DNA of 64,000 bases from NCBI GenBank assembly GCA_977862235.1, contig OZ374563.1:2356001-2420000 (forward strand), in the 5' to 3' direction. The DNA comes from Dudresnaya verticillata (lineage: Eukaryota). The position numbers and the translations under genes were made by a program. The notes below the pieces were generated by a model. That model ran no database searches. It had not been told where the DNA came from and saw only the letters and a list, made by a program, of their open reading frames with translations. Of the stretch, positions 3,550 to 64,000 are shown in pieces (position 1 is the stretch's first letter; every line of letters starts with the position of its first letter).

Positions 3550-4266
3550 ATGGAGTATCCTCGTCACGTCAAGATGGTCCCAATACCGCTACATCCCTTT
3601 TTGGTTCTTTCGGCTTTCAATACTCTTCTCACAGTGTGCAATGGCTTCTGTACACACCCACCACCAATAACGGAGTCCTTCTGCCGCTCCCCACCGCTGG
3701 CGACGCAGCTCTCGATCTCCGCGTACCAAGGTCGTTGGTTCCAGATATACACCTCAGGAACCTCTTCTGCATTCACTTCCAACCGTTGTGTAACCGCAAA
3801 CTACACACTGGCCTCGAACTCTTCCGTGGCCGTTCTCAACTGCCAGCAACTGGACCCGTCGCTACGACCCCAATGCATAGTGGGCAATGCTTCAAGAGTC
3901 CATGGAGGATCAGCTGCGGAACTCGAGGTAAGCTTCTTCCCAGATGCCCCGCCGACGCCGTACAATGTCGCTGCGCTGCTTGGTGATGACAGCTACGGAT
4001 ATTTCGCAGCTGCAGTGTATTCTTGCCGTGTTACCAAGGACGGACCTAATGAAGGCTTCTTCATACTTTCTCGCACGCCATTCATGCCGGCCATGACGCT
4101 GGGACTTATTTCAGCGCAGCTCCGGTGCATGGGATACCCGCTCACAGATCCCTTCCAACTTACGACGTATTCGTCTGCTTGTTCATTCTTCGACTCGGAG
4201 AAGGGATTCGATGTTGTGCCGCCAGTCGTACCAGGGACGTCTCATTTGGCAAGTACTTCGTATTAA
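3550..4266 (+). CDS. Secreted lipocalin (apolipoprotein D/Blc-like)
   Basis: Hydrophobic N-terminus, SCR1 'LSISAYQGRWFQI' (GxW), 'CVTANYTL', SCR3 'FFILSRTP'. Intact 238-aa single exon. Confidence 0.85.
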   Translation: MEYPRHVKMVPIPLHPFLVLSAFNTLLTVCNGFCTHPPPITESFCRSPPLATQLSISAYQGRWFQIYTSGTSSAFTSNRCVTANYTLASNSSVAVLNCQQLDPSLRPQCIVGNASRVHGGSAAELEVSFFPDAPPTPYNVAALLGDDSYGYFAAAVYSCRVTKDGPNEGFFILSRTPFMPAMTLGLISAQLRCMGYPLTDPFQLTTYSSACSFFDSEKGFDVVPPVVPGTSHLASTSY

Positions 4267-10730: not shown

Positions 10731-12401
10731 TCAGAACCTAATCGATACTTCGAACGAAAGTCCGCACCCCACCCGATGAGATCCCAACCACTTCTGTATC
10801 TCGTCTGGTAACATAACTGGAAAGAAAAACTCTTCTTTGCCGTTCAGAAGGGTACGGTAACGTGTTATAAGATCGATCTTACGGAAACACTTTTCGTGCT
10901 TCGCATCACATGCAGTACCACGAAGTTCTCGTACATGTATGCACATGCGTATCTCCTTATCGGCAGCATACTCCTGTGCTATCCGACGTCGAAGGTCTTT
11001 GTCCATCTCTATCTTCACGGCTAATTCCAACGGGCTAGGAATTGGAACAAGGTTTGCATTATCGAGATTTGCAATTGCTGAGCGAAACCACAGAACCCCT
11101 AAGCGAATGGTGTGGCCTCCAATTTTCTCTCTTTCTGCCCTGTACTTCTCGACTCGAGATCCTATAATGGGGACCCCGTTAGCTTCTTGAAAACCAAATA
11201 TATGACCAAGCGATGGATCTAAGTCCGCATGAAGGTCGCCGTAGTCCCACTTGATCTGGAGCTGGTTGGATACATCTTTGACCAAAGACAGCGTCAGGAT
11301 TCGCCATGCGGACCTTGGCCACTTTGAAGCGAAGCTGGAGCCAATTGCCTGTGAAAAACCAATTGTATTGTGATCCAGCTTCCGAATCGCAGACAATGAT
11401 TCAGCCTCTGGCAGCTTATCCGCTAGATGATCTAGAACCACTTGCAGAAGAATAGCAGAGTGGTCGCCATCGGAGAGATTGTTAATCCTTGCAAATGCCA
11501 ATGGTAATATCTGTTGGAATTGAAGCACATTCCAGATGCAATTCGACCCAAGTCTCCAGTACGCAGGTGGAAGGTGCCTGCCTTCGCTTTTCCAGTTCTC
11601 AAGAAAGGTTTGACACTCTCTCTTCAAGCTTCCGTTACCTCCAATGTCGCGTTGAGTCGAATGCGCAGAATGAGCGGCGTCTTCACTAGTACTCTGGTTG
11701 GACCTAGTATCCTGGTTGGACAAAACGCAAGCTTGTTCCGCTGTCCTCCTCGTGCTGCGTGTCTGGGAGCCTGATGCGGTCGGATTATAGCATCTGCGGA
11801 TCATCTCTGCTTCAAGCGAGTAGAATTCCTTTGCAAGCTGAGTAGTGATGAAGTCTTGAAACGGGTTGGAGACCCGAATGAAATTCATAATGGGTAGATA
11901 CTTCTCAAGGAGCGGTATCAGAGTAATTCCCTGCGTGATCGATGCGAACTTCTCCACGAGAAACCACGCTTGAAATAACACTTCTATTCCCCATCGGTTC
12001 ATAGTGAAGGGCAAGCTTCTCGTGAACGAATCCGTGTGGATTGTCTCACAGTACAGAACCTTTCTGATAATCGAAAACTCTTCAAAGGATTCAGCAGCTA
12101 GGTGCAGGTGACTCTGGGTAGATTCCTTAAAAGGTCCACTCACTAGCGAAGCGAGGGGTCCTCCAGCAGCGAGAAGATGAGAGCGGTGGATCTTCAGGGT
12201 ACGGTCTTCATCTTCTACCCTCTTCGTTTTCCCAGAGGTACTCTTGTCGACGAACTCTCCAAAGGTGATCGTAATGATTGGCTCATTAACGGTCATACTA
12301 CCCAGCCCATCACAGTACTTCTGTAAGATCTCTATTTGGGGACGCAGCACCTTGCAGTCGTTCTCTAAAATCCAGTCCTCAACGTGAACGGGGCAGTTCA
12401 T
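10731..12401 (-). CDS. BTB/POZ-domain protein
   Basis: 'LKIHRSHLLAAGGPLASLVSGPFKESTQSHLHL..ESFEEFSIIRKVLYC' is a BTB signature. Intact 556-aa ORF. Confidence 0.8.
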   Translation of the reverse strand: MNCPVHVEDWILENDCKVLRPQIEILQKYCDGLGSMTVNEPIITITFGEFVDKSTSGKTKRVEDEDRTLKIHRSHLLAAGGPLASLVSGPFKESTQSHLHLAAESFEEFSIIRKVLYCETIHTDSFTRSLPFTMNRWGIEVLFQAWFLVEKFASITQGITLIPLLEKYLPIMNFIRVSNPFQDFITTQLAKEFYSLEAEMIRRCYNPTASGSQTRSTRRTAEQACVLSNQDTRSNQSTSEDAAHSAHSTQRDIGGNGSLKRECQTFLENWKSEGRHLPPAYWRLGSNCIWNVLQFQQILPLAFARINNLSDGDHSAILLQVVLDHLADKLPEAESLSAIRKLDHNTIGFSQAIGSSFASKWPRSAWRILTLSLVKDVSNQLQIKWDYGDLHADLDPSLGHIFGFQEANGVPIIGSRVEKYRAEREKIGGHTIRLGVLWFRSAIANLDNANLVPIPSPLELAVKIEMDKDLRRRIAQEYAADKEIRMCIHVRELRGTACDAKHEKCFRKIDLITRYRTLLNGKEEFFFPVMLPDEIQKWLGSHRVGCGLSFEVSIRF

Positions 12402-13892
12402 AATGAAAGCCTACAGCTTGGCTATTACAAAAGACACTTAGCGGGGTCCTGAAAACACACGCCTTGGAAGGCCGAGAGAAGTGCGATGAATAGTAATCAC
12501 AGGCGTAACTGGTTCTTGGAGGTTGTCGGAATACCTCGATCTTGGCAAAGAGTTCTGCAGATCTTTGTCGAAAAGCAATTGCCTTGTTCTCTACGAGATT
12601 TCGAAAAGTCGCGCCTCACCGTAGCGATGTCTGCTCTGGGTGCGAAGTAAGGTCTCCAGCCAAGTTTGGAGCCTTCCCGTGTAGAGAGGCTCTCGAAGAT
12701 GAAACTCTAGCCGCCCGATCAGGAAGGCGCTTGCAACAGGCTCTGGAGAACTTGCAAATATTTGTTTCTTCTCGTCGAGAAACCTGGACAAATCCAGCGA
12801 CATTACTTGATCTGTAATGTCTGCTCACGAATTACACCAAAAAAAGGGATTTTTTGGGTCAGCAGCACCCTCGGCAGCCGTTGCTCTGTGGGGTGCCCGG
12901 CCGCGCTGCCATGGGGCACGCGGCTACATCCTTGACGACATTTATGGAAACAACTGACCAGTTTGATTTTTGCTTGATTTTAGGCAGGAAGAACATCTTC
13001 TTGCCGGCAGCGACCGAGCTTTGCCACACATGGCCCGTCCAACTGGGACACTCCGGTCCCAAGCCGCTGGGAGAGCTGCTGCTGCGTCTTGCATCTGCAC
13101 ACGGGCAGCGAAGGCCCGGTCACGTTGACAAGTGGATCGGCGCGCATCACTCCCACGATGGTGTCGCAACGGCATACTGGTAGTAGCGCATTGCTGAAAG
13201 AGTATTTCAGACCGACCAACTTCAGTAACACAACAATCTGGCCAAGCAACATTTCGTTCTAAATCTTTCCCTTCCCTTCTCTGTTTTGATTCTTTGTCTT
13301 ATACACTCTTTCGTCCTTTTGTTGAAGTCGAACACAGCGGTAATGGCATTTAAATATTTGTTGAACAGTTTTCGTAGATTATGGAAATGCGTGAACGATT
13401 TGGAGCAATTACGTGTACTCTTGGTGTCCAAAAAAACACGAATGTACGTCGATAATATTTCTCTCTAGTCAGTTTAGACCAACAGGAGTGCCAAGGTGTC
13501 GAAGCAAATATTCCAGAAAAAGGATTCTGAATAGACGAAAAAGGAGTTAAAACTGCGGTTGTGAAGGTGCCCAATTATATTACTGTGAAACCCATAAACT
13601 TCTGTAACGGACAGATGGCCAAACTTCCCATCACGGAACGTGGATGTGGTGTAGTGTGGTACAATGAGCCGCCAGGAGCTGTAAGCACGTACACGTGTTT
13701 TGCGCCTGTAATGCGCGGGTAATATTGCACGTGGCGTGCGCCTGTAATGCGCCGCACATACTGACGCACTGTAAGGCCCAGTGCATTGCTGACCACTCCA
13801 TATGGCATTGCTGGGAACAGCACGGCGCCAATGAGATGGCTTCCCGAGATTGGCTGGTTTATCATGGCCTTACGCGCAGGAGTGCGCCCGAG

Positions 13893-16398: not shown

Positions 16399-18916
16399 GT
16401 GGAACGCCCGCCCCGAATGGCGGGCGCTCCAGGAGATGAGGAACCACCTGTTCCAGAGAAGGGACAGGTCCCGAATGAAGAAAACATGGTCAGGACCCCT
16501 TCCGCAAGCGCCGCCACCTACGGCGCGAATGAGGGTCCTGACCCTAGTATGCCGCCGCCGTCCATCAGTCGGGCTAGCCAGCACGGTACGGGCGGACAGG
16601 CCCTAGAAGATGTGACCACGTCATCATTGCCCCCGGACATAGGGGTGGCAATGAGAACGAAAGCCAATTCGACCGACCAACGGTGTTTCTCAGAACGCGA
16701 GATAGGCCAGATGGTCGAATTGGGCATCGAAAATGTTCTCGTCACGTGCATCCGAGCGTTGCTCGAGAGTCAAGCTGACGAAACCCTCTCGAGGGTGAAG
16801 CGTTATTTCGACGACTCAACAGCCCGCCGGGGCGATCAATTATTGGCAAAGGTCCAAGAAGAGATCGATTCTCGATGTCGACAAACCTCCTCTCGAGGAG
16901 TAGACGAAGAACGGGTCGAGACCCTACAAGCCCAGGTCGATTCCTTGGGGGACCAACTTGGTTCACCAGGAATTAGACCAGGTTACAACGGATGCCGACC
17001 GTTCAAGACAAGAAGCCGCTTTGGCTATTTCAGACGCCCAGTTGGGCGCGGACAACACTCGTTGTGTTGAACAAGACAGACGCATCGAGCTCCCTCAACA
17101 GGAGCTCGATGCGGAGAAGAGTCGAGTCGCTATGATAGGAGCCCAAATGCGGCGACTCAACCGCGAAAGGGAAGTCGTCCCTGAGATAATGCGCCGTTGT
17201 TCGCCAGTGCCTCGAGGCACGCGAGAGCGTCGCAGAAGGTTACCCCATCACGGGTCAGGCCACGAATCTCAAGACGATGAGGAAATGGCCCGGTGTCCAA
17301 ATCACCTGGGGTGTAATTGCAGCCGACCGAGTCAACCTCGGTCTCGCCCCGATAGGCATTCGAGCCATCGACATGGTGGGAACCCCCATCCGGAAGCATA
17401 CCCTACCTCAGGGTCGTCCGAGGACGAAGAGCCACAGTTAAGAACCTTCTCCAGACCCTCCTGGTCTTCTTGGAAGGGACCCCGGCGTTCCGGTTTACAA
17501 GAACTGATTCCGAGGAACCCTGTCTTCGTACAGGTACTTTTATATCGAAGGTATAGGTTGTTGAACCTAGATGACTACAGGGGACCTGAAGTCACGGAGA
17601 CTACGACGAAGAAGATAAAACGGGTGAAGACCGTGATGAGAAGTCGCCGGTTCGACGGAAGTGACCCAGTATCCACTATTGGATTTCTCGCAACACTGAA
17701 ACGACAGCTGGACCAAGCTCACATTACTGAAGGAGCAGCTATCCTTGTCATCGCAGACTTTCTGGGGAAAGATGCCAAAGACATGTTTGAAGCGAACCTC
17801 GACGCTGCAGGAGATGATAATCGTGGATTCAGCGAGTGGGCCGAGGCCGTCAATTACCTTCTTCGCACGTATGCGAAAGACGTCTACATCGAGAGGATAG
17901 CCTCTGATATGGACACCATGGCACAAGAGCCGAATGAGGACGAGGTCACTTTCTCTCGACGGTTACAAAACCAAGCGCGACGAGTCGCTGGGGTCTACAC
18001 AGAGCAAGACTTAATAACACGCTTTATTAGGGGTCTTCTCCCCGCGGTGAAGCCGCTGTTAAGCACTACCTCTCTGGATCCACGGACCGCCCGTTTGACA
18101 GATTATGTCGAGCTCGCCACCGCCCGGGGAGATTCCCGTCGTGCCCTAGTGGGAGGTGGCCGAGCGAAGAAGGCGACCTCGACGCTGCATAAGAAAACCC
18201 TCGCGAAGATACGGACACACAAACCTGGTCGGGCACTTCTCATTCGCCAGTCGAGACGGTCGGGGGCATCTGACTCCGAATCCTCAAAGAGTAGCGACTC
18301 TGAGGACGACAACGAAGATGCCGTCGTCGCGGCTATAGACGAAGAAGCGCCACCATCAACGGCAACCCAATCAGACAGCTGGTCCTCCGGGCAGTACTCC
18401 TATGGCCAGCCATAATATGGCGAAGTGGATGCGGTCATCCAAAACTACAACCATAGGCTCCCAGCCTGGGCTCAGCCAACAAGGACGCAGCATCCTGGAT
18501 GGCAGACGGTCGAGGACCAACCAAATGACATCTGCTTTGAGTGTTGTGGCGTCGGTCATAAAGAGCCAAATTGCCCTCACCTGGCGCGTACGGACGAACA
18601 CTCTTTTGAGACTCTAAAAAGGAGGCAGTTCCAAGAGCTCTCGCATGAGCAGAAAGCCTGGTTGGCAACTGTTGGGCGACTACCCTACTTCGCAAATGGA
18701 CCGTTGTCGACAGGCCAAGCGATTGGGCCACCCACAGGCGCGCGTCAAAATATGGGGACGGGCGCCGGCGGAAATAGGCAAGTTCAATTTCATCCGGGTC
18801 TGGATCACCCCATCGACGCGCCAAGGCAAGCGCCGCGGGCACCAAGACCAGGGCTACGACCCGTTCCGCCACCACCACCGTTACCACGGTCGCCCGCGCT
18901 CAAGGAGAAACACTAG
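16399..18916 (+). pseudogene. gag: Gag of element 1 (frameshift near 17000, in-frame stop at 18413)
   Basis: Retrotransposon gag core 'FDGSDP...EGAA...FL...W...L...Y...Q..NE....F..RL' and CCHC knuckle CFECCGVGHKEPNC. Confidence 0.85.
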
Positions 18917-19085
18917 AGAGGGGGGAACCGGTTTCGGTTGACCCGATCACTCAGGTTACATCGGAACCCCCGATCGATTCGCTGAACGCAGCTTCACTAG
19001 CACAAGCTTCGACAGCTTCTCCACGGATCGACCGGTTTCACATGAGAATGTTGCTTCTGTTCCGAAGAACATCTTAACGCGCCCC

Positions 19086-22000
19086 ATGGGCTTACCCCGT
19101 GGTTGTACGTATGACGAGTATTGTAAGGACCCAGTCTTTTCCCTGTCACGCTACAACTATAAATTTGCTGCGTCCGTCGGGACTTCTGTGGAAAAAATCA
19201 CTCGAATACTATCCGTATTGGATACAGGGGCTGGCCCTAATCTGCTCCGGGCGGAAGTTCTTTCTCCGGAAGAAAGGAAGCGCATCTCGACGAACAGGTC
19301 GATCGTCAACTTGACGTATGCGTCGAGTCATAGACTAACTACACTGGGAACCATCTCGCTCGTTGTACGCGTGGGCTCATACACGGTTCGACAACCTTTT
19401 TTGTCGTCAAGGCGCTTGCAGTGGATGCCATCCTGGGATGCACGTTTATCGATACCCACGTTGAGGTTTTACGTGTTCGGAAACAGAACATCGTTCTCCG
19501 AGACGGGTCGATACACCCTATCCTAAGGCGCCGTTGCGGCATACCCCGTGAAGATCTACCCTCAGAACCAATGAATGTCCCTCCTTTAACTACCTCGCGA
19601 CTAATCCGCGTCGCCGAACGCACTAACTTACCGCCGGGCAATGAGACATGGGTCGTCGTGACCTGCTCGGCCCAAGGAACGCACTTCCTGGAATCATTTC
19701 CATGGTTATACGACCGTCAACACGTGGTCGTGACCAACGGTATAGTCGATCTAGAATCGAATCGGATCTTCCACGTGAATGTTGCGAACTTCTCGCCGCG
19801 CATGCAGCAGCTTCAGAATAATCAAAGCCTCGAAAAGGCTGTCCCAGCGCCCACCCGGACGCCGGTATACGCCATTTCCATCGAGGAATCTGATCCTGAC
19901 CTCAATCCTGACACCTCCGTGTCCAGTCCTCAACCGGACACATTCCCCGATTTGGGGGGCGCGACTGGCTGCTGCTCTTGGTAGTGAAGGCGCAAAGCCT
20001 GGAATTATAACAGCGACCTCTACGCCGTCTCCCATGTCAGTCGATGACTTGGCACTGGAGCACCTGTCCGGGCCGGACCGTTGTCGAGTACGAAAAATGC
20101 TCCGACCATTCGCCGGTATGTGGGACGGCGAGCTGGGAACAATCAAGGTGACGAAGCACCTAATTGAACTACAAGAAGGTTCCAAACCTGTATTCTGGCA
20201 ACCCTATCGGTCGGGCCCGAAAGCTAGACAAGTCGAACAAGACGAAGCAGACAAGATGCTTAAAGAAGGCGTCATCGAGCCTGCTCGCACGGAGTTCGCA
20301 AGCCCCGTAGTGCTGGTCAAGAAACCCGATGGGTCCCTACGTTTCTGCTTCGATTACCGCAAGCTCAACGCTATCACAGGTAAGGACACATATCCTCTCC
20401 CGCGGATGGACGAGTGTCTGGACTCGCTGGGAAACGCACAATACTTTACAACCTTGGATTGTAGTTCCGGGTATTGGAAAATTCCAGTCGAGGAAGATGA
20501 CAAGCACAAAACGGCTTTCACTTGCCATGCCGGATATTTCCAGTTCTGCAGAATGCCCTTCGGGCTCTGAAACTTTCCCGCGACCTTTCAACGTACGGTT
20601 GATATCCTACTCTCCGGATTCAGATGGAAAACCTATTTAGTCTATTTGGACGACATCATTATATTCTCGACAGCAGTCGACGAACACCTCACACACGTGA
20701 AGGGCATTCTAGAAGTACTGCAAGAAGCAGGAGTTTCGCTGAAACTAAAGAAGTGCCACTTCTTCACGAAGAGCGTTGACTACTTAGGTCACGTGATCCG
20801 CCCAGGACTGCTAGAAGTGGCAACCAGGAATACCCAAGCCGTCGAAGGGTTTAAGGATCCGAAGACTCAGACCCAGTTACGATCATTTATTGGAATCTGC
20901 AATGTTTACAGGTGCTTCGTGCCTAACTTCGCGCGCGTGGCGGCCCCACTAAACGCACTCTTACAAAAGGATCAGGACTTCGAGTTACCAACGTTCGACG
21001 AACGTCAACGAGAAGCGTTTGAACTTCTCAAGAAAGCGTTAGTCGCTCCGCCGATACTGTGATTCCCTCAAGAAGATAAGGCTCTCTCCGTCGACACGGA
21101 CGCCTGTGATTACCAAATCGGGTGCGCATTGATGCAGATGAAAGAAGATGGCACCCGACACCCCATAGAGTTTTGGAGCCGCGGCCTAACGAAGGCGGAA
21201 AAGAACTACTAGGTAGTCGGGAAAGAATGCCTACCAGTGGTCTGGGCAACGCAGATGCTTCGTCCATATTTGGAACGGTCCCACTTCGACCTGTATACGG
21301 ATCACCAAGCTTTAAAAGGGATGATGAGCATGACCGATGCTTCAGGGAGACTGGCCCGCTTGAGGTTACGCCCGTTGGAATATGATTTCACGGTACAATA
21401 CCGAAAAGGAAAGAAGAATCAGATCGCGGATGCCGTCTCTCGGCTGCCAACTTACGGCTTCACCCAGTGGGAACCGGACCTCGAGATCCCTTGTTTTGTA
21501 ATCGAAAACGATCGAAAGGACGCCTGCGACGAACGGTCGCCAGCGCGGAAACCACGGACGGGTGCACAACTCCAACCCTTAGAGGTTTGGGGATTCGAAC
21601 CTCGGGATGACGACCCTTCGGGTGACGAACAGCTAATAGCTCAGGTGGCCGACAAGGAATCACCCCAGAAGGGTCTCTCCCTCATAACAGTGGAGGAGCT
21701 GCTCCGAGAGCAAAAATCAGACGACTTCTGCGTCTGGGTCCGGTGGAACTTCGAGACGGGTAAGCCCGGCTGCTATCTCGAGGATAGGAGAGTACTCCTT
21801 GTGCGCAAGTCGTACGTAGACCACGTTCTACAGGTACTCGTACCTAGATCACTGAAAGAAAAGGTTCTACACCTAGCGCACTACCCGGAGTTGGCCAGCC
21901 ACCCTGGGGGTACCGGGATGTATCACAACCTTCGACGACAGGTATATTGGCCTGAGATGTCTCTGGACGTGTACGCGACAGTAATAAATTGCGTCAAGTG

Positions 22001-23423
22001 CGCCCAAGAGCGCGTCCAACTTCGAAAACATACTTCCCATATGAAGTTATTCCCGGCAACGTTGCCTTTGGAATTCATAGGGATCGACATCCTTGGGCCC
22101 CTGCCCCGTTCAGGCAAAGAAAATGAGTTCCTCCTAGTCATGACTCACAGATTCTCCAAACTAACGAGAGAGATACCGTTGAAGACAGTCACAGCCTATA
22201 CAGTGGCCAAGGCTTTCTGTGAGCATTGGGTTTTCATATACGGTCCACCCCGTTACGTCCTTTCGGACAATGGCTCGCAATTCGAGTCAAAGTTCTTCCT
22301 CGCGATGTGCGACATCCTTCGAATTAGGAATATGTTTACGTCAACCTATCATCCGCAGACGAACGGTCAGACAGAACGATTCAATCGTACCCTCCTAGCG
22401 GGGTTGCGACATTTCATCGCCGAAGATCAGAAAGACTGGATAGAGTTTACCTCTGCGTTAACGTGCACGTATAAAACTATTGTACATCGTGCTACGGGCC
22501 TGGCGCCCTTCGATCTGGCGTTATCTAACCCCCCGATATCCATCTTAATGTAACAAGCAGAGATAGTGGACGTCGAACACGTGCCGGCGACTAACGTTAA
22601 GAAGCGGCTGACTCTACGCTTACAGAAGCTGATGGATACGGCCTTACCGCGGATGAAGTTAGCGCAACGGCGCTATGAAACGAATTTCAATAATCGGATT
22701 CGACCGGCTAACCAGAAAGTGAGACCTGGGTCTTGGGTTTTCCTAGAGAGGGAAACGAAGGTGAAGGACGCTTCAGGTGTGGCCCGCGAAGGGAAGTTGC
22801 TTCGTAAGGCTCTCGGGCCGTATAAGGTTCTGGAACGTGGAACGCACGTTGTCATTCTAGACATCAAAGGAGATAGAGAGACGACATCTCTGGACCGGGT
22901 TACCTTGGCCCCCTCTCCGCATTAAGAACCAAGCGCGCAGGGTCAAGACCCTTCAGTAGTGTGCCTCACGCCATAAAGCTCGACGGCGCCGAACGGGCGA
23001 GTTGGGGGCGCAAATGCGAACACCGATCCTCACAATCCCGAGAGACAGGGCGTTTCCGATATTACGGACAATCTGACTCTCGCGGTGCCGCCTACTTATG
23101 GAACAGCCATACCGAGTCCCCAAGATGCAGTGGCTGCGGCCCCTCCCAATCCGGATCGCGATCCTGTAACCGCCGCGCCCAGCACACCGGCGACAATGCG
23201 GAACGACCCCTCTTCCCCAGGGAAGTTTTCTCGTTTTAAGAAAGCGCCGCCACGCGAGCGAGTTTACGATCGCATCGTGTTGTATGATGCCGGTCGACAT
23301 CTCTACCGCATTCGGTGGTTTCAAATTCCAGCGTCAGAAGACACTTGGGAGCCCAAGGAACATCTTCCTCACAATCTGGTGGTAAGATACCATCGAGCCA
23401 AAGGGGTCGCTCTCCCGCAATAA
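19086..23423 (+). pseudogene. pol: Pol of element 1: protease, RT, RNase H, integrase, chromodomain (stops and frameshifts)
   Basis: LDTGAGPN, SPVVLVKKPDGSLRFCFDYRKLN, YLDDII, TDHQAL, HHCC zinc finger, IDILGP, SDNGSQF, HPQTNGQTERFN, GPY, chromodomain YRIRWF...EDTWEPKEHL. Confidence 0.95.
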
Positions 23424-23671: not shown

Positions 23672-23857
23672 TGTATAGATGGAAACAAAGGAGTCAAGAC
23701 TCTGAAAATGGATAGATGTAAGGAGTGGATCCTGGATAGATGTGTGGAAACGGATAGATGAATCAAGAACCTAGATTCTGTATAGATATGGAAATGGATA
23801 GATGAGTCAAGAATCTAGATTCTGGATAGATGAGCTGTATAGCTACATGGATAGATG
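23672..23857 (+). repeat. GGATAGATG motif array downstream of pol (element 1)
   Basis: Six exact GGATAGATG (23710, 23734, 23752, 23796, 23824, 23849) plus GTATAGAT variants. Confidence 0.9.
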
Positions 23858-24815
23858 TGAACCATGGACGTCGCTCGTATGAGGGACCCGAGGATTTAGA
23901 TCCTGAGTCAGGGCCTATGCCCTGGACAACGCAGTCAAACGCTTCCAGTTGAAACTGAGGGATATGCGGCGGGAGATATCAACAAAGCCAGTCGAGGCGA
24001 GCAAAGCCATGCTTAGCTCTAGGGGCGAACCCCACCATAAGTTGACCAACTCGTCGAAGTCCAACCTCGGTGACGCTGCTCGCGAGTATGACGCATGCGT
24101 GCACGCTTTCGCGACCCCGGCGGGGCATTACAGACTGAAATAGGGCCAAACCTTTGAGCGTCAATTACGGCTACGGCAGAAATGCCGAAGCAGGCGCGAA
24201 GAGCCTCTAAGATGTATTGTCCTCGTTATGGGAAGCCTTCTTGGCAATAAGCCCTGGAGCATCGGGCAGAACCAAGGACGCGTAACCACGCTCAACAGCG
24301 CGACTAGCCTGCGAGGCGTTGGCTTCGCGCCAAAAAAACGCTACAGTACAGCCACTCGCTACTGTAGAGCCGAACAACTGTCGCTGATAGGTCACCACGG
24401 CCAGGGAGGCGGAATAGGGCTCCAATGGGGAGTCTCTAAATCAGCGTCTAACCGCTTCGACTACAGTGTTCTCCAACATAACTGTAGCATATTAAAACGC
24501 ATTGCTGGAGTTGCCCCCTTCGCCGCACGGCCTCAAGGAGGCGGATTGGCCCCCACTGGGAGTCTGCAGACTGGCTCATGTACCACGGCGCGTGGTGGCA
24601 CACAGCACGCGAGCTCAATTCGCCCACTGCCTCTATTCTGGCGCTGACCCCAAGCGATGCGACTCCGCTAAGTCTCAGAGTGAGAATACTATCACACCTC
24701 AAACGCGCGCAACGCCTACCAAAGGAAGTGATTCTAAGCATACAAGACGGATTTATTTAGCGGGCCAGCCAATCAAAAGTCTAAGGCTATAAGCCTGGGG
24801 CTAGCGCACGACGCG

Positions 24816-27131
24816 CTAGTCAGAAAGTAGGTCGATGACCTCGTTCTCCTTGAGCGGAGGATGGGGCCCAGACGGCGCCCGAGTTGTCGTGACACGACGC
24901 ACTTCGCGCAACACTCTAGCTTGACGAGGGCCACGACCACGACGAGTGTCGAGGCCATCATGAGTCCCGCCAGCACGGCCTGACACTTGGCCCTCGATGT
25001 CCATGGGCGAGCCATCGCGCTCACCCTCGCCCTCCATGGGCTCTATTTTCTCCTCCTCTTTGAGGAGGAGCTCCGTCTTCACGATGACTTCCGAAGTCAT
25101 CCGGTCTGACGCCAAAGGCTCTCCGGCCGTAGCGGGGACCTTCGTAGTTCCCCCTTGAGCCCCGATGGGCTGGATTGCGACAGACTGGTCCGGCGGCGGG
25201 ACCTTCTGACCTTGGTCATTCGTGACTTGATCGACCTCGGCGGAAGCCGACGTAGGCGACTGCACAGACCGCACTGAAGCCAACTCGGGCTAACCAGCCG
25301 GCGCTTCGACATTTTCCTCGCGGGGGATCTTGCTTGTATCAGCCTCAGTGGCTTCACGGGCGTCGAGGCCTAACTTGGCAACAATCGCCCCTTTAGCTAC
25401 GGGCGCTGGGCGCTGGGGGTGACCAAATCCCTTACGGATCTTCTTTCCAACTCCACCTGTTGGGTCTTCAGCTTCTTCTGCTTTAACACCACCCAGAGGC
25501 GGTAACGCCTCAAGAATCGCCCGAAGGTGGGCTTGCTCCACGGGACCCGGAGCCTCGATCCAATGCGCCTCGTACTCGGCTAAGACTTCTTCGACCCAGT
25601 CGGCCAGACTCGCCAAGTTGAGGTTATGAACGTTCCAGTGCACCGTCAGTCGGATATCCAAACCTCGGCGGTTAAACACGTCGCGGATTTCCGCATCTGC
25701 ACGATAGTGGTGAGCCACTGAAGGCGCGTACGGACCTTGCGGTTGGCCGTCGAAAGTGTCGTCGAACGGCGGCACCTCTTCGAGGCTAGAAGGGCCTTCA
25801 TCGCGCCATTTCACACTTACCCAACCGCGGGTGTAGCCAGTCCGGCGTTCGCCTTCATCTAAGGCAATGGACCCTCCCTCGGTGGGAAGCTCGGCTAACA
25901 TGAAGTCTGGTAAGACTGGAAGCCATTTCTCCGGGTCGAACTCCACCCAATCACCCCGATCAAAGACGGCCGTGATGTGCCCCGTATTCTTGGGTAAGAA
26001 GAAGTTGCGCTTAGTCACTCGACTCCATCGAATACGTTCCACGAAGGAAAGGATGGCGTCGAGATCGGCGGCATCTTCCGCTGTGGCGGTAAAGGCAGAC
26101 GGGCCGAGGGACCGAATACACGCCTGAAGGGGCTTTCCAATGAAGTACAGAAAGCCCCGACGGGCTTCATACACGAAAACTTGTGTCAACATCACGATCC
26201 ACTCGTGCCGGAATATCGTCCAGAGTAGGGACTCGTCGTAAGCCACATTCATCATCTCCAGACCGAGATAAGCCACGATTGTAGGCGTGCCCATGGGCAT
26301 CGAGTACGAGACCTCCAAAACAGCCTGGACGTCAGGCACTTGAGGATACTTGATCCGATAAAACTCCGGACGGATGGAAGTCACTTCCTGGAAATGGGCC
26401 GGAATGAAGCAGCCAGTACGATGGCGGAGGCGGCGCTCGAAGCGCACTAAATCCGACGGCATGGCCGTTTGAGTGTTGTCCAGGGCATACTTAAAGTTTG
26501 AGTTATCGTCCCAGCGGACAACACTCGCCGTCGTATACGGGTAGCTGTCCCTTCCTGGACGAATGAACGGCCGTTGGTGGCACACGATCGACAGATCGAA
26601 AACTCCAGTTTTATGGATGGTTTGGACCTCCTTGATCCGGAAGTTGATGAGCCTCTCCAAGGCTGAAGTGTAAAGGACCTCATGGCGAAAACGTGGATGA
26701 GCGAGGTCCCACTTCCAAGGGCCTTCGATGGTAGGCAACTCCCGGTTGGGTCCCGTGAGTATACCAAGACCCTGACGAACGTGCGCATGCCACGTGCGGC
26801 GCTGTGCACGTCTTGCGCCGCGTCGGCGGATCTCGCTACGGTCGGCTCCCGCGTTGGCCTTGATGTGTGCAAGATCTGTGCGCACACGCCAATCGCGGCT
26901 ATTCTTTATTGTGATCGGTACCCTTGCCTCGTCCATTTCGAAGCCGAGGACTCTAACGCTGGAACCGGCGCTTCCAAAAACCATCTGCTGCTTCGTACTC
27001 ATGATTGAGTTCTCGCATGAATAAGCCACGTCGAGGGACCGTGAAAAAATCGTGAGCCGCGAAAGCGATACTGGATGCCCGTCGACACGGGACACCTGAC
27101 GTCGACTGGGCGTACGATGATTTGTCGCCAC
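24816..27131 (-). CDS. Antisense accessory ORF of element 1, unknown function (~728 aa from ATG 27002, one internal stop at 25290)
   Basis: 613-aa ORF continues in the same frame into 24816..25283. Clear homologs at 31156-33249 and 48224-49600. Confidence 0.85.
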
Positions 27132-27265: not shown

Positions 27266-27377
27266 AGAGAGGGGGCCGTGTGGTACAATGAGCCGACAGG
27301 AGCTGTAAGCACGTACACGTGTTTTGCCCCGGTAATGCGCTGGTAATATTGCACGTGAAGTGCGCCTTAATGCGCTG
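27266..27377 (+). repeat. PPT (AGAGAGGGGG) and truncated 3' LTR (27279-27377) of element 1
   Basis: Purine tract followed by TGTGGTACAATGAGCCG..., matching 13655 onward for ~99 bp, then an abrupt switch to RNase H coding sequence. Confidence 0.88.
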
Positions 27378-29700
27378 CGAGAAGGAATGCCTCGCTGTAG
27401 TCTGGGCTACACAAATGCTGAGACCATGTTTGGAAAGGTCCCATTTTGACCTGTACGCCGACCATCAGGCTCTGAAATGGACGATGAGCGTGACGGACGC
27501 GTCCGGACGTCTAGCGCGATGGCGCCTATGTCCCTTAGAATACGACTTCAAGGTTGAATACCGTAAGGGGAAGAAGAATCAGATTGCTGACGCAGTCTCC
27601 CGGTTGCCCACCTATGGGTTTACTACGTGGGAACCGGATCTTGAGATCCCCTGCTTTATAGTCGCTGATAGCGAGAGGGAAGATCCTCCCGACCCTTCGG
27701 CGAAGGATGAATCGGGAACCAAGACCAGTTCGCGACCCTTGGAGGAATGGGAGATAGAAACAGAGGATAATTTATTCGAGTCGAGTCTCGAGGACGAGCG
27801 ATTGATAGCCAATGTGGCTGAAACGGAAGTGGACGAGAAGAGTCTTTCCCTTCTCACAGTAGAGGAAATCCTTCGCGCGCAACGAACAGACAAGTTCTGT
27901 AAGGGTATCAAGATAGCCATCGAAGCTGGAAAACCGGGATGCTATCTGGATGACGAACGCGGACTCCTGGTCCGAAGGTCTTACATTGATAGGGCTTTGC
28001 AGGTACTCATACCTAAAGTTCTCCAGGCGCGAGTCCTACATCTCACGCACTACCCAGATATGGCCTGCCATCCTGGTGGCACGAGGATTGTGGGATGTAC
28101 CACAACTTGAGAAGGCAAGTATATTGGCCAGACATGGCCCTCACCGTTTACTCGACAGTGCGGAACTGTGTCAAGTGCGCGATGGAACGAGTCCAGTTGA
28201 GAAGACATACTTCGCACATGAAGTTATTTCCGGCATCATGCAACTTGAATTCCTAGGAATTGATATCTTGGGCCCATACCGAGACCAAGCAAAGGGAACG
28301 AGTATCTTCTCGTCATCACCGCTCGTTTCTCGAAACTGACACGGGTAGTCCCGTTGAAGACGGTGACGGCTTATAATGTAGGAAGAGCATTCTCCGAAAA
28401 CTGGGTGTACATCTACCGGCCACCCCGTTACGTCTTATCCGATAATGCATCGCAGTTTGCTTCCAAGTTCTTTATTTCCCTGTGGCATCCTCCGTATGCA
28501 GAATATGTTCACATCTACATATCACTGGCAGACTAACGATCAAACCGAAAGATTCAATCGCACCCTTTTAGCAGGGTTGAGACACTTCATTGCAGATGAC
28601 CAAAAGGATTGGGACGAGTTCACGTCTGAACTGACGTATGTATATAATACGACCGTTCATCGTGCAACGGGATTCGCGCCTGTCTATTTGGTTCTATCCA
28701 ATCCAACTACTTCTATCCTAATAGATCGAGCTGAAACGGTCGACGTGGCCAACGTACCCGCGACGAATGTCAAGAAGCGGTTAACCGCTAGACTTGAGAA
28801 TCTGATGTATACAGCGTTGTCTCTGTTAAAATCAGCGCAACGTCGCTATGAGGCTAACTTCAATAACCGCATGCGTCTGAGTATTCAGAAGGTACACCCT
28901 GGGCAATGGGTCTTTCTCGAAAGAGAGACTAAGATGAAAGACGCTAGAGGCGTGTACAAGAAGTAAAACTCTTCCCGAAGGCTCTGAGGCCTTATAAGGT
29001 CCTCGAGAGAGGAATGCACGCAGTCTTGCTTGAATTCAAAGGCGAGCGAGAGTCGACCTCGTTGGACCGCGTGACCTTATCGCCTTCGACAGACAAAGGG
29101 CTCGGAGCCGAAGGACAAGACTCCACGATAGTTGGTGAAGCACCAGAAGTCGAAGAGCAGAGGCCACCACCATCTGGACCTGAACCCACCTCTGGACCTC
29201 CCACTGAAGGGGCACCAAGAACTAAGGATGAGGAATCCTCTAGATGGGCCACGGGTCCCGCAAATGCCACGACTGTCTCCCCTCCAGCAATTAGAAACAC
29301 TGAAAATATCGATAACACCGTGGGATCTGTTTCTCCTAGTATACTCCCCACAGGGGTTCCTGTTACACTATCGCCAGGCGGTACGGCCTTACGTAAAAAC
29401 TCCTAATTCTTACAGGATTCAGGTCCGGCCGCCGCTCAGGCGGCAACGCCACGATGGAGAGCAACGTGAATGCGCCTCTCCGTACGTTTTCTCGCTACAA
29501 GAAAGCACCCCCACGTGAGTACGTTATGACAAAATCGTCGACTATGATGCCGGTACCCATAAGTACCGTATTCGATTGTTCCAATGCCCAGCGGCGCAAG
29601 ACACCTGGGAGCCACGGGATCATCTCCCTGAAAATTTGGTCAAACGGTACTGCCGCTCAAAGAAGATCCCCCTTCCAGGAGCAGCTGCCGACTCACTGGC
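27378..29700 (+). pseudogene. pol: Pol 3' half (RNase H, integrase, degenerate chromodomain) of related element 2
   Basis: EKECLAVVWATQMLRP, DHQALKW, TERFNRTLLAGLRHF, SLDRVTL and KKAPPRE motifs, paralogous to 21237-23423. Confidence 0.9.
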
Positions 29701-30004
29701 TTAGTTGATAAGCAAAGACGTGAAGTCTCGAGAGAATACATCAATAGCACTCTACGGAAAGAGCCTAGGCTGTCGGTCTAGTATGGGACCTGAGGAATCA
29801 AACTCCTGCGATAAAGGTTGTGTTGATATCTCAAGCTATCATTCTATGAAGCATGAAGCACGTGGATGATGCTGAGAAGAAAATGAACAATCGTCCAAGG
29901 AGAACAGTGCCCACAGCAATGGTCGTCGCCTACTAGGCGAGGTTGGTTGAAACTTGGAAGACGTACGCTGATTTATAGAAGATGGAGACTTTGGTCAGGA
30001 GATA

Positions 30005-30127
30005 TGGATAGATGAATGGATATTCAAGATTTGGATAGATGAATGGATCTTCAAGATTATGGATAGATGAAGGGATATTCAAGATTCTGGATAGATGTAC
30101 AGAAGTTTCAAGCCCTGGAATAGATGA
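30005..30127 (+). repeat. 27-28 bp tandem array with GGATAGATG core (element 2)
   Basis: GGATAGATG at 30006, 30033, 30061 and 30089, plus a variant at ~30118. Confidence 0.9.
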
Positions 30128-31155: not shown

Positions 31156-33249
31156 CTAATCCGATAACAGGTCAATAACCTCATCTTCACCCAACGGAGG
31201 ATTGGGCTGGGGTGGCGAGTGAGACGCGAAGACACGTCGCACCACGCACACGACGTGACGGCTCCCAACTCCGCGACGCGGACCACGGCCACGCCGACTA
31301 CCATTTAAATCGCTCAACCCCTAAACGCCCTCTGGGTTGGTGCCACTTGGATGAATAACCCGATAGTCGCCTTCGAGCAGCTAGCGTTGGGCTGACCCCG
31401 AGTGTCGTCTCGGGGCGAGATCGTGTTTAGGAACTCGCCAGTGGCCATGAAGCCAGACATTTGCGTCATATGAGCAGCCGTTGCTATCGTCGATGATGAG
31501 GCACCAGCTGTATTGATTGGCTTGGGAGCCGAGTGGGCTATGGCACCTCCATGACTAACAGAAGGGGCCACCACTGACTCTTCGCGAGGAATCACCGAGG
31601 TGTTACCACCTGGCAGGGCACGGGGGTCCAAACCGTCGACTCTACTCGACTCCTTCTTATTCCGCGGTGCCCCCGCCTGCCCCAAGACCAAACACGGTTT
31701 GATTTCAACATCACTGGGGTATCCCTTCAAAGGCGGAAACCTTGACAGGTAGGCACGGAGATTCTCCAAACGCTCCACAGGACCCGGAGTCCTCATCCAA
31801 TGGACTCATAGTCCACCATAACCTCCTCGACCCAGTCTCAAGGCTATTAACGGTGAGATTACATAGCTCTCAATGCACCGCGAGGCGGATAGCCATCCCT
31901 CGTTTCTTGAAAACGTCACGAAGGACGTGATTGGATTTACCATGGCCGGTCGCAGAGGGCGCGTATGGACCTTGATGTTGACCATCGACAGTATTGTCGA
32001 ACGAAAGGACGTCTCCTGGAGTCTCTGGGCCGTGGTCCTGCCAACTGGCACTGACCCATCCCTGGGTTACGCCGGTAATGCGGTTTCCTTCATCCAAGAC
32101 CAGGGATCTCTCCTCTGTCGGCTCGGGATGAATCAAGAATTCCGGCAACATCGGATGCCAGTCTTCTGGATCAAAGTCCACCCAATCCCCTCGATCATAC
32201 ACTGGGGTAAAATGACCGGTACAGTCGATCCGCGATAATTGAATACTCGATAATTGTATAATTGCGGTATTTGCATGATAGATCCGACTCCCACCACGGG
32301 AGCCTTCAAATGTTAACCAAAAAATCGGCCTCTATTCAAACTCGCTATTTGCATGGCTCAATCTCGATCGCAGGTAGTCCAGATTGAGCCAGGAGGGGGA
32401 TCAATGAGGGCAATGCCCTGCATGGCGCGCTGCAGTGTTGCAGATTTCTAACTGAGGACAAACCGCGCGCTTTTCAGGCTGGTTAATCGCCCGCCACATC
32501 GCAACCCATTTAAAACGGCGGGCGTCAGGCGGGACAGCTCACAACAGGCCCCTGCACCCCGGGCCGCACTTAAAGCCGTTGATATCGCGAAGCAAGTCCT
32601 AGGCGCGAACCCGGAGCATTGCGGGGCGGGGCGGGGATGCGCGCCATGAATCGTTTGCAGGCCGCTTTGCGACGCCAGAGGGCGGCGCGGCAACCCAAAC
32701 GACGCTGGATACGTTCTTCTCGCAAGTATGGGTATTCGGCACAGTCTATGAGTAAACGTCTTTTTGATTGATACGGCAATGTAACTTACAGTACCGATAG
32801 TTGAATATGACCGCCTATTGCATAGGTGTCCCGGCAACCGTTAATATGCAATTATCGCGGATCTACTGTATTCGCAGGGAGATGACGCTTCCGCTTGGAG
32901 ATTCGGCTCCACCTAATACGGTCTATAAAGAATAGAAGTGCCTTCAAGTCCTGGGAATCTTCGGCGTCCGCCGACAAATTTTTGATACCCATCTCCTTGA
33001 TGGCAGCGCGAAGGGATTGATTGATGAAGTACAGCATCCAGTGACGAGCCTCATAGACGATAGTCCGGGCGACCAAGACGATCCGCTCGTGACGGAAAAG
33101 GTCCAGAGTACACTCCCATCCATGGCTCGCGCCATCATGTTCAGACCAAAGTAAGCCACGATGGTGGGGGTACCCACTAGCATCGAACATAGGACCTCAT
33201 ACGACGCGTGGTCGTCGGGAAATTGAGGGTATTTAGCCCTGTAATACAT
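31156..33249 (-). pseudogene. Antisense accessory ORF, copy 2 (5'-truncated, frameshifted, split by a MITE)
   Basis: YRAKYPQFPDD..YEV..SM.VGTPTIVAY.GL.MM, FRHE, RIRWSRI, DRGDWVDFDPE, and C-terminal PPLGEDEVIDLLSD*. Confidence 0.85.
32222..32868. mobile_element. Non-autonomous Tc1/mariner-pogo-type MITE (647 bp)
   Basis: TIRs CAGTCGATCCGCGATAATTG / CAATTATCGCGGATCTACTG (1 mismatch in 20) with TA on both sides. Removing it restores 'LPANT-GHFTPVYDRG'. Confidence 0.9.
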
Positions 33250-36626: not shown

Positions 36627-38779
36627 TTGCAAGACTCAGCCCCGCCTTCCTCTACGGTGGGCGCTCCTATAGGCCCATCCCCAGCTCCCGGCCTATATCC
36701 ACCGTTGTTGGGACCACCCCCACCACCTCCGGTCCTGTTAACGACTGGCCAAGGTATAGCTCTAACAGTTGGCCGTACAGGGTTAGCTTTTACAGCAGAT
36801 GCGGTCCGTAATGAGGTACCTCCACGGGCAGCTCCACCGGCGGCCACTGTGCCACCGATAACTCCGCTGGTGACGCCTGCTAATCTCCGTCCACCTCCGG
36901 TTGACAATGATTCCCAGTCAGAATACGACCGTTAGTTGGGCAGAACAGGAGTTCTACCAGTACAAGCAACGAATGGCCGAGTGGCAACGAGAGATGAAGA
37001 ACCAGTTTGGTGAGATGGAAGTCAAGATGTCCACCACGGCTCTGATTAGAGACCAACACCTGCGCCAGGAGATACACTATGTCATTATTCACGGTGCACT
37101 TACGGACATATCCGAACGATATGATGGGCGTCTGGAAAGAGTTGAGACTGCCGTTTTTTCTTCCGACGGGAAGGGAAAACGCCCTGCTCCTCCTCGCCAG
37201 ACAAGGTCCGCGTCCGCTCGGATGACACCGGCCAATCAACCAGTCTTGGAACCACAGATTGTCGGCCCGGTAGCAGCATTACAGAAGCAACTGGACACGT
37301 TTCAAGATGAGAATACTGCCTTTTCCAATCCTGACAAGGCACGGCCAATCATTTTTGTGGAAGGGGTACCACCGCAAGCGGGCAACACTCAGAACATTGG
37401 TGCGGCCCCACGGCCAGTCTTAGTCGGACCTTCTAGGCCAAGTGACGCAGAAGGATCTTTCACGGGATATGCTGGCCATTTGGATGAAACAGGTCTTCCT
37501 TTCGCGGCGATGGGCGAAGTCAACCTAGCCTAAAGCCTCTCAAGACCCTCTAAGAACCCTTCCGACGGGTTGTGGATTACCGGACCCACCGTCGTCTGGA
37601 AACTCGGCCAACGATGACTATGGAGGATGCGCACTGCTTGTCCCGGGTGACTCGCCAAATCCGGAACTTGTCCCCGCAGATGAACCCAGTTGATGGCCGG
37701 CGCCCGATAGAACTCCTGTCTTGCTTGAAAGAGGTCAAGGATGCCTGTGACGGGACGAATGTCCACGAAGGGTCTGTTTTGCGTTTTCTAGCCTTCTTTA
37801 CGACCGGGGATGCGAAGAGGTTCTATTCTGACCGTATGTCCGGAGGAATAAGGTCAATACATCCCATCTTTCCGATGCGTGGGTTTTCAAAAACCAGTTG
37901 GCTACAGTTAGTCTATGCTTTCCTCAAGCGCTACTGCACTGAATATGTTCTGGCCGCTGTGTTGGACAAAGTGGCTAAAAGAAAACAGAAAGATATAGAG
38001 ACAGAAGCGGAATTCGCTGACCGGTTGGGGGACACGGCGCTGTCGTGCGCCGATGTCTTCCCCAACAACACCAAGATCAACCATTATGTGAGGGGTTTAC
38101 CGTCGACCACTCTTTCGGCTCCAGCTGAGAAACTCATACAGATTCTGCCGGAGGGGAAGGACTTCTCAACGGTGCGCCGTATAGCCATCGCCGAAGGGGA
38201 GACACACAAGGCCTACCTGGCCTCTGCACGTCCCAAAACAAGCTCGGCCAGTTCTCGAAGTGCTTTGGTCATCCCTACCCTTGCGACCGAGCCTGCTTGG
38301 CAGGCGGAGCTCGAAGATATAGCGGCCAACTATGATGAAGCATTGACATCATTCCGGTTATGACCATTACTCCTGGTCACAATGGTGCTCAGCAAACACC
38401 GACAATGACACCGACCACACAGTCACCAGCAGGGTCAGATACCGGGGGTAATACCCCAGACCCACTCTTAAAACCTCCGACGTTGATGTCGGATGAACTG
38501 GCCAAAGTCGTTATTTTGCTGCGCAGTGATAAGACCGGTGCCCGTTGTTGGGGTTGTCGCGAATGGGGCCAGGATTGGTACACTTGTGTGTACTTGCCAT
38601 TGGCCATTAGAAACGTGTTTGCCATACGTAACTTTCGCTTCAGAGATGAGTACGCTAGATGGCACTTCGAAGCGTTTGCTGACAGAGGTCGATATCACCG
38701 CCCCGATCAAAAGAATATTTCCTTTAAGCATGGAAGGGGGCGCCCTCCCCCTCAGCTAATACCCCGACGGCCACAATAA
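36627..38779 (+). pseudogene. gag: Gag of element 3 (fragmented)
   Basis: 'DGRRPIELLSCL...HEGSVLRFLAFFTTGDAK' aligns with element 1 gag 'DGSDPVSTIGFL...TEGAAILVIADFLGKDAK'. Degenerate knuckle CWGCREWGQDWYTC. Confidence 0.75.
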
Positions 38780-48223: not shown

Positions 48224-49600
48224 TTACTGTTTGTGCTCCACTTCGTCCTCTTCTTTGAGGACTAGCTCCGTCTTCACGACTACGTCGTCCCTATCAACTG
48301 GAGCCATCGCGACCTGAGTCCGCTCTTGAGGGTGAACCGTTGTGGACTTTGAGCCTTCGTTGCCACGTGCAGCCGATGTCGATCGCAAAGTCGGGTCTGG
48401 TGCGCTGTGCTTCACCTTGGCTTGAGAGTCAGTACGTGGGCAGTCTTCGTCCAACAGTTCCCCCGATGGGGCAAGGCCGGCTAACACCGAGGTAGGCGCT
48501 TGAGGCGTCACCAAAGAAGAGACAGCCTCCTGCTGAAGGTCTCTCTCGACCGGCTTCCCCACGGCCATAGACCGGTGTGAGATGCCCGGTGTTCTCAGGA
48601 AGGTGGCGATTACGCTTGAAGATATTACTCCACCGGATGCGCTCCACAAAACACACTAGGGCTTCCAAGTCCTTGGCATCGGAAGCATCCCCCGTCAAAC
48701 GCGCCGGGCCCAGGGCCCTAGATGCTATGCAGATGGGCTGCCCGATGAATAACAGCAGGGCTCGTCGAACCTCGTAGATAAAGACCTGGACCACGAGAAC
48801 CACCCACTCGTGTCTGAAGATGCTCCATTACACACTGTCGTTCATGGCCTTCGCCATCATTTCCAGTCCCAGGTTTGCCACGATAGTCGGCACACCAACT
48901 GGCATGGAATAGGACACTTCATAGTCCTTGTGGTCGTCGGGCACCTGGGGATACTTCCTATTATAGAATTCAGGCTTGATAGCCGAGACTTCCTGGCAGT
49001 GGCAGGGCACCAGACATCCCGTCTTATGACGCTCATGATGCTCGAAGCGTACGTACTCTAACGGCATCGCCGTCTGGGGATTGTCTAGGGCATATTTCAA
49101 ATTTGAAGATTCATCCCACCGCACGACGCGGGCGAGGGTATAGGGGAAGTTATCCCTCCCGACACGAATGAGCGGGCGTTGGTACATCACGATGCGCAGG
49201 TCCCAGTCACCCTTTTGATGGATCTCTTCCAACATGATAGCATCCGACGTGAGCCTCTTAGCTAACTTGTTGCTCCAGGGCACCTCGTGTCGAAACCGCA
49301 CGTACGCGAGATCCCACTGCAGAGTGCTGGCGTCTCCATCTATACGCGGAAGGAAACGGTTCGTCCCCGTGAGGGTGCTCACCCTAGCCCGCATGAGGGT
49401 ATTCCCAACCCGGCTCTGCGCCACTCGGCTGCCGCTGCGGCGAATCTCTTCGCGACTGGCCCCGGCGCGCACGTTAAAGTGGGCAAGGTCGGTACGCAGG
49501 AGCCAGTCGCGGCTGGCGAGACAGCCCTCCGCACACCAGCCGCATCCACTTTGCGGCCTAGCACATTGGCACTGGAGCCAGCGACCCCATAGGCCAAACG
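48224..49600 (-). pseudogene. Antisense accessory ORF, copy 3 (element 4; stop and internal deletion)
   Basis: RTDLAH, WDLA..RFRHEV, RP.IR.GRD..PYT.A.VVRWD..SN.KYALDN.QTAMP, KYPQVPD, EVSYSMP.G.PTIVA.LGLEMM and VKTEL.LKEE. Confidence 0.88.
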
Positions 49601-50003
49601 TGGTGGAGCCATTAGAAGTCGGTTCTTGGTCTCTGAATTCTTCTACGGCTTCAAAGCCTTTTGCGTCGGCTCCACAGTCGACGTGTGTCGACGAGCGCGA
49701 CCTGAGAAATCCTTCTAAGGCACGGAGGCGTTATGACTGTCGGCATGAAAGCCCCCTGCGGGTGGCGAGCGCTACCTGAATCTCCTACGGCTTCAAAGCC
49801 GTCTCGAATACTGACCGTCGGCTCCAAAGCCGATCCGCATAAACGACGAGCGCGACCTGAGACCTTCTGAAAACTTCGTGCAACACCCCGCCAACAGCGC
49901 TGGCTGACACGACTCGGCCCCGCCGAAAACAGAAACCACGCGACGTAGTCGGAACAGGCCGCGAAAGGTGTGCTGGAATAAAGCGCACGGCAGACGCCGT
50001 AGG

Positions 50004-63611: not shown

Positions 63612-64000
63612 TTTGATATGACAAATTGCAATACCTTCTTTCGCCGTCGCTTGGGAGTGCGTTCAAGCATACGCAGAGCATCTCCTGTCGTACCACGGCG
63701 AATGTGAGCCGAACAGACTAGAGTTAGGCAAAAGTTCCATTGCGTGCTGATGAAGAAAACAGATCTTCCGTCCTGTTGTGTTTGGCTTTCTGAAATTGCG
63801 TATTGTACCATCGGAAACCATTCGCACTTCACATCATCAAGCTTCGGCAGGCAGACATGAAACTTTGATCTTCTCGTCTTTTGGGAAACTGTTCACTGCG
63901 CACCGTTCGGTGTTTCGTTGTTTTCGTTTCCGTTGCCGATGCCACATCAAGTTACGCTTGCATTCTGCAGTACTTTCAAGGTCTCCAACACACAAGTCCT
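63612..64000 (+). repeat. Copy of 253-641, continues off window
   Basis: Apparently identical over the 389 bp visible. Confidence 0.95.

Follow-up and report, generated by a model that had tools for sequence, protein, structure and literature searches.

Genes that lie antisense between pol and the 3′ LTR have been described in several LTR retrotransposons. These aORF-3R or eORF-3′R genes, among them GENE23 of maize Grande and the corresponding genes of rice RIRE2, Silene Retand and Botrytis Boty, are the closest known counterparts of the gene reported here, which has the same orientation and position. In the available parts of three accounts their function is treated as an open question (PMC7264820, PMC11963269, PMC6317226), and "SUMO" is not mentioned in the part of PMC11963269 concerned. 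Our gene lies in the window, by which we mean the whole stretch of 64,000 nucleotides of Dudresnaya verticillata that was analysed, and is present there in three copies.

Some hosts use SUMO to silence transposons. The consensus for SUMOylation is psi-K-x-E, and a narrow consensus for the SUMO-interacting motif (SIM) is [PILVM][ILVM]DLT. DAXX is said to be a repressor, and geminivirus Rep is reportedly a SIM-bearing viral regulator. According to the available part of each source, the SIM core of PIAS1 is VIDLT (PMC3901395), whereas SIMs in general are loose motifs with a four-residue hydrophobic core and acidic or Ser flanks, aid SUMOylation in cis in DAXX, TDG and others, and occur in the viral regulators HSV-1 ICP0, KSHV LANA and K-bZIP, and EBV BGLF4 (PMC12751080). 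Similarly partial texts describe a role of SUMO in piRNA transposon silencing in Drosophila (10.1101/533091), and an action of VANC, an accessory protein of the Mutator-like VANDAL transposons, on host silencing (PMC13547354).

Copy 1 of the antisense ORF belongs to a Ty3/Gypsy element on the plus strand, in which gag is followed by reverse transcriptase, RNase H and integrase in that order, with a chromodomain after the integrase (PF00385 at 28.2 bits, cut-off 25.1; Table 1). Among the 120 matches listed for the integrase, all 10 relatives with an organism name come from Chondrus crispus. Unlike Retand, which is a non-chromovirus of flowering plants, the window element has a chromodomain integrase and red-algal relatives. 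The antisense ORF lies downstream of pol and before the polypurine tract in copies 1 and 2, and in copy 1 the tract sits just beyond its 5′ end. The sequence that begins at 27279 is 92% identical over 102 bp to positions 13654-13755; the two are likely the starts of the 3′ and the 5′ LTR, respectively, and the likely 3′ LTR ends after about 100 bp, where the pol of copy 2 interrupts it. No pol was found adjoining the antisense ORF of copy 3. The retrotransposon of copy 1 is decayed, with in-frame stops in gag, pol and the antisense ORF, and all three window copies of the antisense ORF are broken. A second, divergent gag-like ORF of another element was observed at window positions 37554-38363 (+), with a PF03732 match below the cut-off.

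Table 1. Features of the retrotransposon and of the three antisense ORF copies in the window
Feature	Position	Strand	Remarks
gag (PF03732)	16904..18916	+	One in-frame stop
pol: protease-like region (by eye), reverse transcriptase, RNase H, integrase	18942..23423	+	Broken by stops and frameshifts
C-terminal chromodomain PF00385 within pol	~23256-23393	+	
ATGGATAGATG-type tandem repeats between chromodomain and stop of the antisense ORF	23749..23860	+	Copy 2 counterpart at 30003-30097
Copy 1 antisense ORF, ~727 codons	24816..27002	-	One in-frame stop; 107 relatives
EVIDLLSD (24842-24819) and stop (24818-24816)	24816..24842	-	Terminal SIM-like motif
RRGRGP basic/RG patch	24927..24944	-	Also in copy 2
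EVIVKTELLLKEE, two psi-K-x-E matches	25053..25091	-	Common to copies 1 and 3
In-frame stop between core and motif-bearing tail	25290..25292	-	Read as decay
Third conserved tail block, GLD..R...S.IPREE.V.AP	25296..25370	-	Common to copies 1 and 2; matches no known motif
VKAE, psi-K-x-E match 5′ of the in-frame stop	25476..25487	-	Not kept in copy 2
Small helical domain, aa 425-498	25506..25727	-	Moderate model confidence; best VIA Z 4.3, uninformative
Conserved family core, P0002 aa ~165-400	25800..26507	-	Inside the confidently predicted aa ~20-400
Polypurine tract (27266-27275) and TG start of likely 3′ LTR (27279)	27266..27378	+	
Copy 2 RNase H-integrase-chromodomain fragment	27382..29677	+	
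Copy 2 antisense ORF, decayed	31156..33246	-	RRGRGPRR from 31296; EVIDLLSD-stop 31182-31156 (stop 31158-31156)
Copy 3 antisense ORF, decayed and truncated	48236..49627	-	VVVKTELVLKEE at ~48286-48248

A full HMMER scan returned 107 relatives of the antisense protein at E 0.001 or better, 23-46% identical and centred on residues ~165-400, a core in which many Trp, Pro, Glu and Arg positions are near-invariant. The origin of 20 relatives was traced, in each case to an assembly from ENA, Logan or JGI. In word-based searches neither the read-through protein nor alignment A1 had a match. Pfam recognised no family in 108 proteins at E 0.01, nor in five further family members including the read-through protein, and NCBIfam matched none of 24 proteins. 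The family thereby differs from Retand TRP28 (PF04195), as neither this domain nor any other Pfam domain was found among the 108. Against PDB sequences the single protein gave one chance-level match (E 0.41) and the profile none.

AlphaFold2 models the core as a mostly helical structure of 381 aa (pLDDT 87, pTM 0.87). Foldseek against BFVD and the PDB gave no match at E 0.001 or better and the ESM Atlas no usable one, and with VIA-align the best Z of the 569-aa model was 4.3, at the helical aa 431-484; the core, compared with 48,161 chains, reached no more than 2.9. The core may represent a new fold, although these searches do not prove it. Downstream of it, pLDDT falls below 50 at aa 500-566, and the modelled part stops before the last 157 residues, which appear low-complexity by eye. 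A membrane or env-like protein was rejected as an identity for the product because the gene is antisense and hydropathy over 19 residues peaks at 1.19. In the open-access literature searched we found no description of a red-algal antisense ORF family or of a SIM encoded by a retrotransposon, so an earlier annotation elsewhere, for instance in Repbase, is possible. The original prediction of an antisense, transposon-encoded protein is well founded, given the position behind pol and before the polypurine tract and the existence of a conserved family. The product is almost certainly a genuine retrotransposon accessory protein, from an apparently undescribed family that, to judge by its motifs, has a probable SUMO-binding tail in some lineages. 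One relative, P0053, has an integrase-like C-terminus, which suggests a rearranged element or a misassembly beside pol.

A degenerate DNA pattern retrieved at least 182 loci, of which at least 73 encode the core; by source, the core-encoding loci comprise 0/3 viral, at least 72/120 metagenome and 1/59 genome loci. RNase H-integrase is also present in 20 of the 73, and in all 20, among the matches listed, the antisense gene lies downstream of it. These 20 testable loci are all from one family, other than the window's, and among the matches listed 76 of 79 core pieces form a single family of high GC content, which shares about 28% identity with the core in the window, so the context behind pol holds for two families rather than for all relatives. 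The loci with genomic context include no SIM-bearing relatives. At one locus, L035, the gene begins ~90 bp into the 3′ LTR of a 559-bp pair (97.7% identical) and stands behind a purine tract resembling that of the window. A related-locus search of viral and metagenome contigs gave no match. Based on the sequence comparisons, the antisense ORF is conserved as a protein across copies and families.

Some members of the family have unusual architectures. Three loci of the high-GC family, L051 (8789-11323, -), L024 and L042, encode a protein whose N-terminus is extended by ~370 residues of low complexity and whose tail, conserved and rich in Tyr, Gly and Pro, ends in DRG where the SIM would be. A 517-aa member (L128, 305-1858, -) stands at the end of a contig filed under a bacterial MAG, directly next to an NRPS-like frame of bacterial type, and the contig is likely a chimeric or contaminating join; in the tail of this protein VWELSS occurs together with acidic residues and a long basic stretch.

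The strings quoted in the original prediction are all present at the minus-strand ends of copies 1, 2 and 3. Copy 1 has the KTE/KEE string VIVKTELLLKEE, with VKTE at 25082, and copy 3 has VKTE at 48277; the tail of copy 2 ends, after RRGRGPRR, in PPLGEDEVIDLLSD. The window motif, E-N-E-VIDL-LSD, agrees with the SIM definition, by which three or more of the four core residues are V/I/L and the flanks are acidic or Ser. Its proposed likeness to PIAS-type motifs is good to that extent, and goes no further, since the window has VIDLL, without the Thr of the VIDLT core. Like the SIMs of PIAS1/RNF4 type (VIDLT, SIMb), the motif combines a hydrophobic core with such flanks in a low-complexity tail, and three relatives have the xxDLT form; unlike PIAS1 and RNF4, the protein has no E3 or RING domain by Pfam, and its binding to SUMO is predicted only.

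VKAE lies upstream of the in-frame stop at 25290-25292, and VKTE, LKEE, RRGRGP and EVIDLLSD all lie downstream. We do not favour read-through of this stop, because there are several stops in gag-pol and the frame of copy 2 continues through the same place. The psi-K-x-E pair was correctly described as common to copies 1 and 3, and VKAE is indeed in copy 1, but cut off by the stop and not in copy 2. As psi-K-x-E is absent from the tail of copy 2 in every minus frame and VIDL is absent from copy 3, copy 1 alone has both types of motif.

Comparison of the copies suggests that parts of the tail were maintained as protein. Between copies 1 and 2, whose cores are 55% identical over 127 residues, 6 of the 8 codons of EVIDLLSD differ (7 bases) and 4 of the 6 codons of RRGRGP, with every change synonymous in both, and the bases beyond the stop look unrelated. 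Over the 317 core codons compared between copies 1 and 3, third positions hold 207 differences, against 100 and 82 elsewhere. On these codon patterns, EVIDLLSD is under protein-level constraint and the antisense gene was formerly under purifying selection. The last ~50 residues of copies 1 and 2 align with a score of 118 (shuffle mean 32), and their third tail block with a score of 66, neither value being reached by any of 300 shuffles. The claim that the last eight residues are identical in an otherwise divergent tail is therefore right about the identity and overstates the divergence, the third block being common to both copies. For copies 1 and 3, the alignment with the KTE block scores 72 against 34 for shuffles (0/300 reach it). 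This block is 80-83% identical in DNA, and its 17 codons comprise 8 identical, 3 synonymous and 6 with mostly conservative changes; VKTE itself gives no synonymous signal, because its codons are identical in the two copies.

To place the terminal motif in the family, we compared the tails of 56 relatives in which the core is followed by 100 residues or more; the remainder of the 107 were fragments or short, and the duplicates P0111-P0115 were dropped. The pattern [VIT][IV]D[LVI] occurs in 9 of these 56 tails against 1.7-1.9 expected, a count reached in 0 of 500 shuffles of whole tails or 10-residue windows, and the p-values for the SIM are optimistic because the main pattern was written after the tails were viewed. 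Including the VVVISD type raises the count to 10/56 (about 2 expected), with 9 of the motifs within the last 75 residues; the relatives' variants are VIDLT, TIDLT, VVDLT, VIDVD, VVDID and VVVISDD. The xxDLT type is found in three tails (P0015, P0017 and P0058) against 0.07 expected. Control patterns are at chance, both reversed (2/56) and with E for D (1/56), as is the SIM pattern in N-terminal extensions (2/46). With four sister rows removed, 5/52 tails still have a motif of the SIM union among their last 75 residues, against 0.75 expected (1/1000). A same-host control with integrase tails gave 0/19 against 0.39 expected, a sample too small to show family-specific enrichment. These counts support an enrichment of C-terminal SIM-like motifs in relatives of several lineages.

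Mapped on a quick core tree of 53 rows, the SIM label is clustered and needs 6 changes, at least 4 of them forced by starred branches, so the motif appears to be inherited within lineages and to have been gained or lost several times. P0015 and P0020, which are 35% identical, both have IDLTGD followed by a K-x-E block in tails that otherwise align poorly. A SIM-like motif is absent from 46 of the 56 tails, some of which are perhaps truncated gene calls, and engagement of SUMO would thus be an optional module rather than the core function of the family. Of the 15 closed long-tailed ORFs at the fetched loci, 13 belong to one family and some are truncated; none has a SIM or psi-K-x-E.

The other proposed tail signals behave differently. 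Before correction for relatedness psi-K-x-E occurs in 7/56 tails against 3.0 expected (12/500 shuffles), and after thinning of sister lineages it is at chance level, at 2/52 against 0.98 (260/1000). It is found in 5 of 10 SIM tails and 2 of 46 others (Fisher p=0.0012); by phylogenetic independent pairs, of which there are only 4, the pairing of the two motifs gives a sign-test p of 0.5. Runs of three basic residues, present in 18/56 tails against 16.6 under local shuffles, are also at chance. From these tail counts, the psi-K-x-E and basic-patch signals appear weaker than that of the SIM.

Taken together, we read the locus as the broken tail of an antisense accessory gene in a chromodomain Ty3/Gypsy element, likely red-algal, whose terminal VIDLL has been held as protein and likely binds host SUMO, a reading that we favour by a narrow balance. 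Considered separately, binding of SUMO by the terminal motif seems fairly probable, SUMOylation of the tail lysines has a chance somewhat short of even, and a net effect that relieves silencing is doubtful. In this scheme, an antisense promoter at the 3′ LTR would drive transcription, and the folded core would carry the disordered tail. The acid-flanked hydrophobic core of the SIM would add a beta-strand to the groove of SUMO, and the SIM would favour SUMOylation in cis of nearby psi-K-x-E lysines. Contact with SUMO would then tether the protein to SUMO-rich nuclear chromatin, where its core might act on silencing or integration of its own element, and the SIM would be an optional extra with several gains or losses behind it; a role for SUMO in red-algal silencing is an assumption of the scheme. 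In a more ambitious version, the chromodomain retrotransposons of red algae would supply a chromatin regulator of their own that reads SUMO. This protein, of new fold and made from an antisense transcript of the 3′ LTR, would have gained its tail of SIM and SUMO sites repeatedly, and would use it to dock on SUMO-marked silent chromatin and there counter silencing or steer integration. We regard this version as rather doubtful.

The acidic dileucine consensus for sorting motifs is [DE]xxxL[LI]. EVIDLL fits it, and the window motif lacks the Thr of VIDLT and stands at the extreme C-terminus, so a selected motif with a partner other than SUMO has to be considered, be it another ubiquitin-like protein, an acidic-dileucine adaptor or a C-terminal degron reader. 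Against such a partner, which we hold to be unlikely, the variants of the relatives listed above share the SIM pattern and not the dileucine, several of them sit 55-72 residues before the end, and no membrane segment was found in the protein (highest 19-residue hydropathy 1.19). A different question is what the protein would do once bound. It could restrain its own element as a form of copy-number control, or use SUMO for its own turnover, instead of opposing silencing; the SUMO-binding step is common to this account and to our preferred one, and repressors such as DAXX likewise combine a SIM with acceptor sites. Antisense accessory genes have moreover been proposed as regulators, also via antisense RNA, in the available part of PMC7264820. 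The direction of the effect is not given by any result here, and we consider self-restraint or turnover quite unlikely.

An explanation without a host partner appears improbable; in it the hydrophobic-acidic ends would serve a structural purpose, by folding back onto the core or linking oligomers, or be generic to disordered tails. Most relatives do without them, the third conserved block shows that conservation occurs without a known motif, and the same-host control is underpowered (0/19 integrase tails), all of which this explanation would accommodate; the residue order is nonetheless specific, reversed and E-for-D patterns being at chance, and the motif has a C-terminal position and K-x-E nearby in 5/10. 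The idea that the match reflects a signal conserved in DNA or RNA, or a chance similarity in dead sequence, is the least credible, to the point of being extremely unlikely. It would agree with the broken state of all three copies and with the DNA identity of the KTE block in copies 1 and 3 (80-83%), but is disfavoured because none of the 7 base changes in EVIDLLSD alters a residue, the sequence beyond the stop looks unrelated, and 0/300 shuffles reach the alignment score.

If the preferred reading, a terminal motif that binds host SUMO, is true, a SUMO-binding transposon protein would be the element's side of a conflict with SUMO-based host defence, in a lineage, the red algae, with little-studied silencing machinery. 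The gene would then resemble the viral SIM regulators, as a parasitic-element protein with a candidate SIM for the host SUMO machinery; it differs from them in being an accessory gene of an LTR retrotransposon, and no likeness to them in sequence or fold was found. VANC, a transposon accessory protein with an action on host silencing, offers a purely functional analogy, whereas VANDALs are DNA transposons of eudicots with a MAIN-related fold, to which neither the Pfam nor the fold searches gave a match here. The family provides a handle on antisense-gene function, with a selected short motif and one obvious candidate partner, and its natural variants with and without the SIM allow comparison.

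The window holds further features beside the retrotransposon copies. Broken pieces of a PIF1-type helicase (PF05970, PF21530) at 39811-41719 (-) probably derive from a Helitron-like element, and a MULE transposase domain lies at 61125-61856 (-). A lipocalin-like gene at 3472-4266 (+) and an open frame of 559 aa at 10731-12410 (-), in which Pfam recognises no family, are probable host genes. A 389-bp repeat, 100% identical, is present at both ends of the window (253-641 and 63612-64000).
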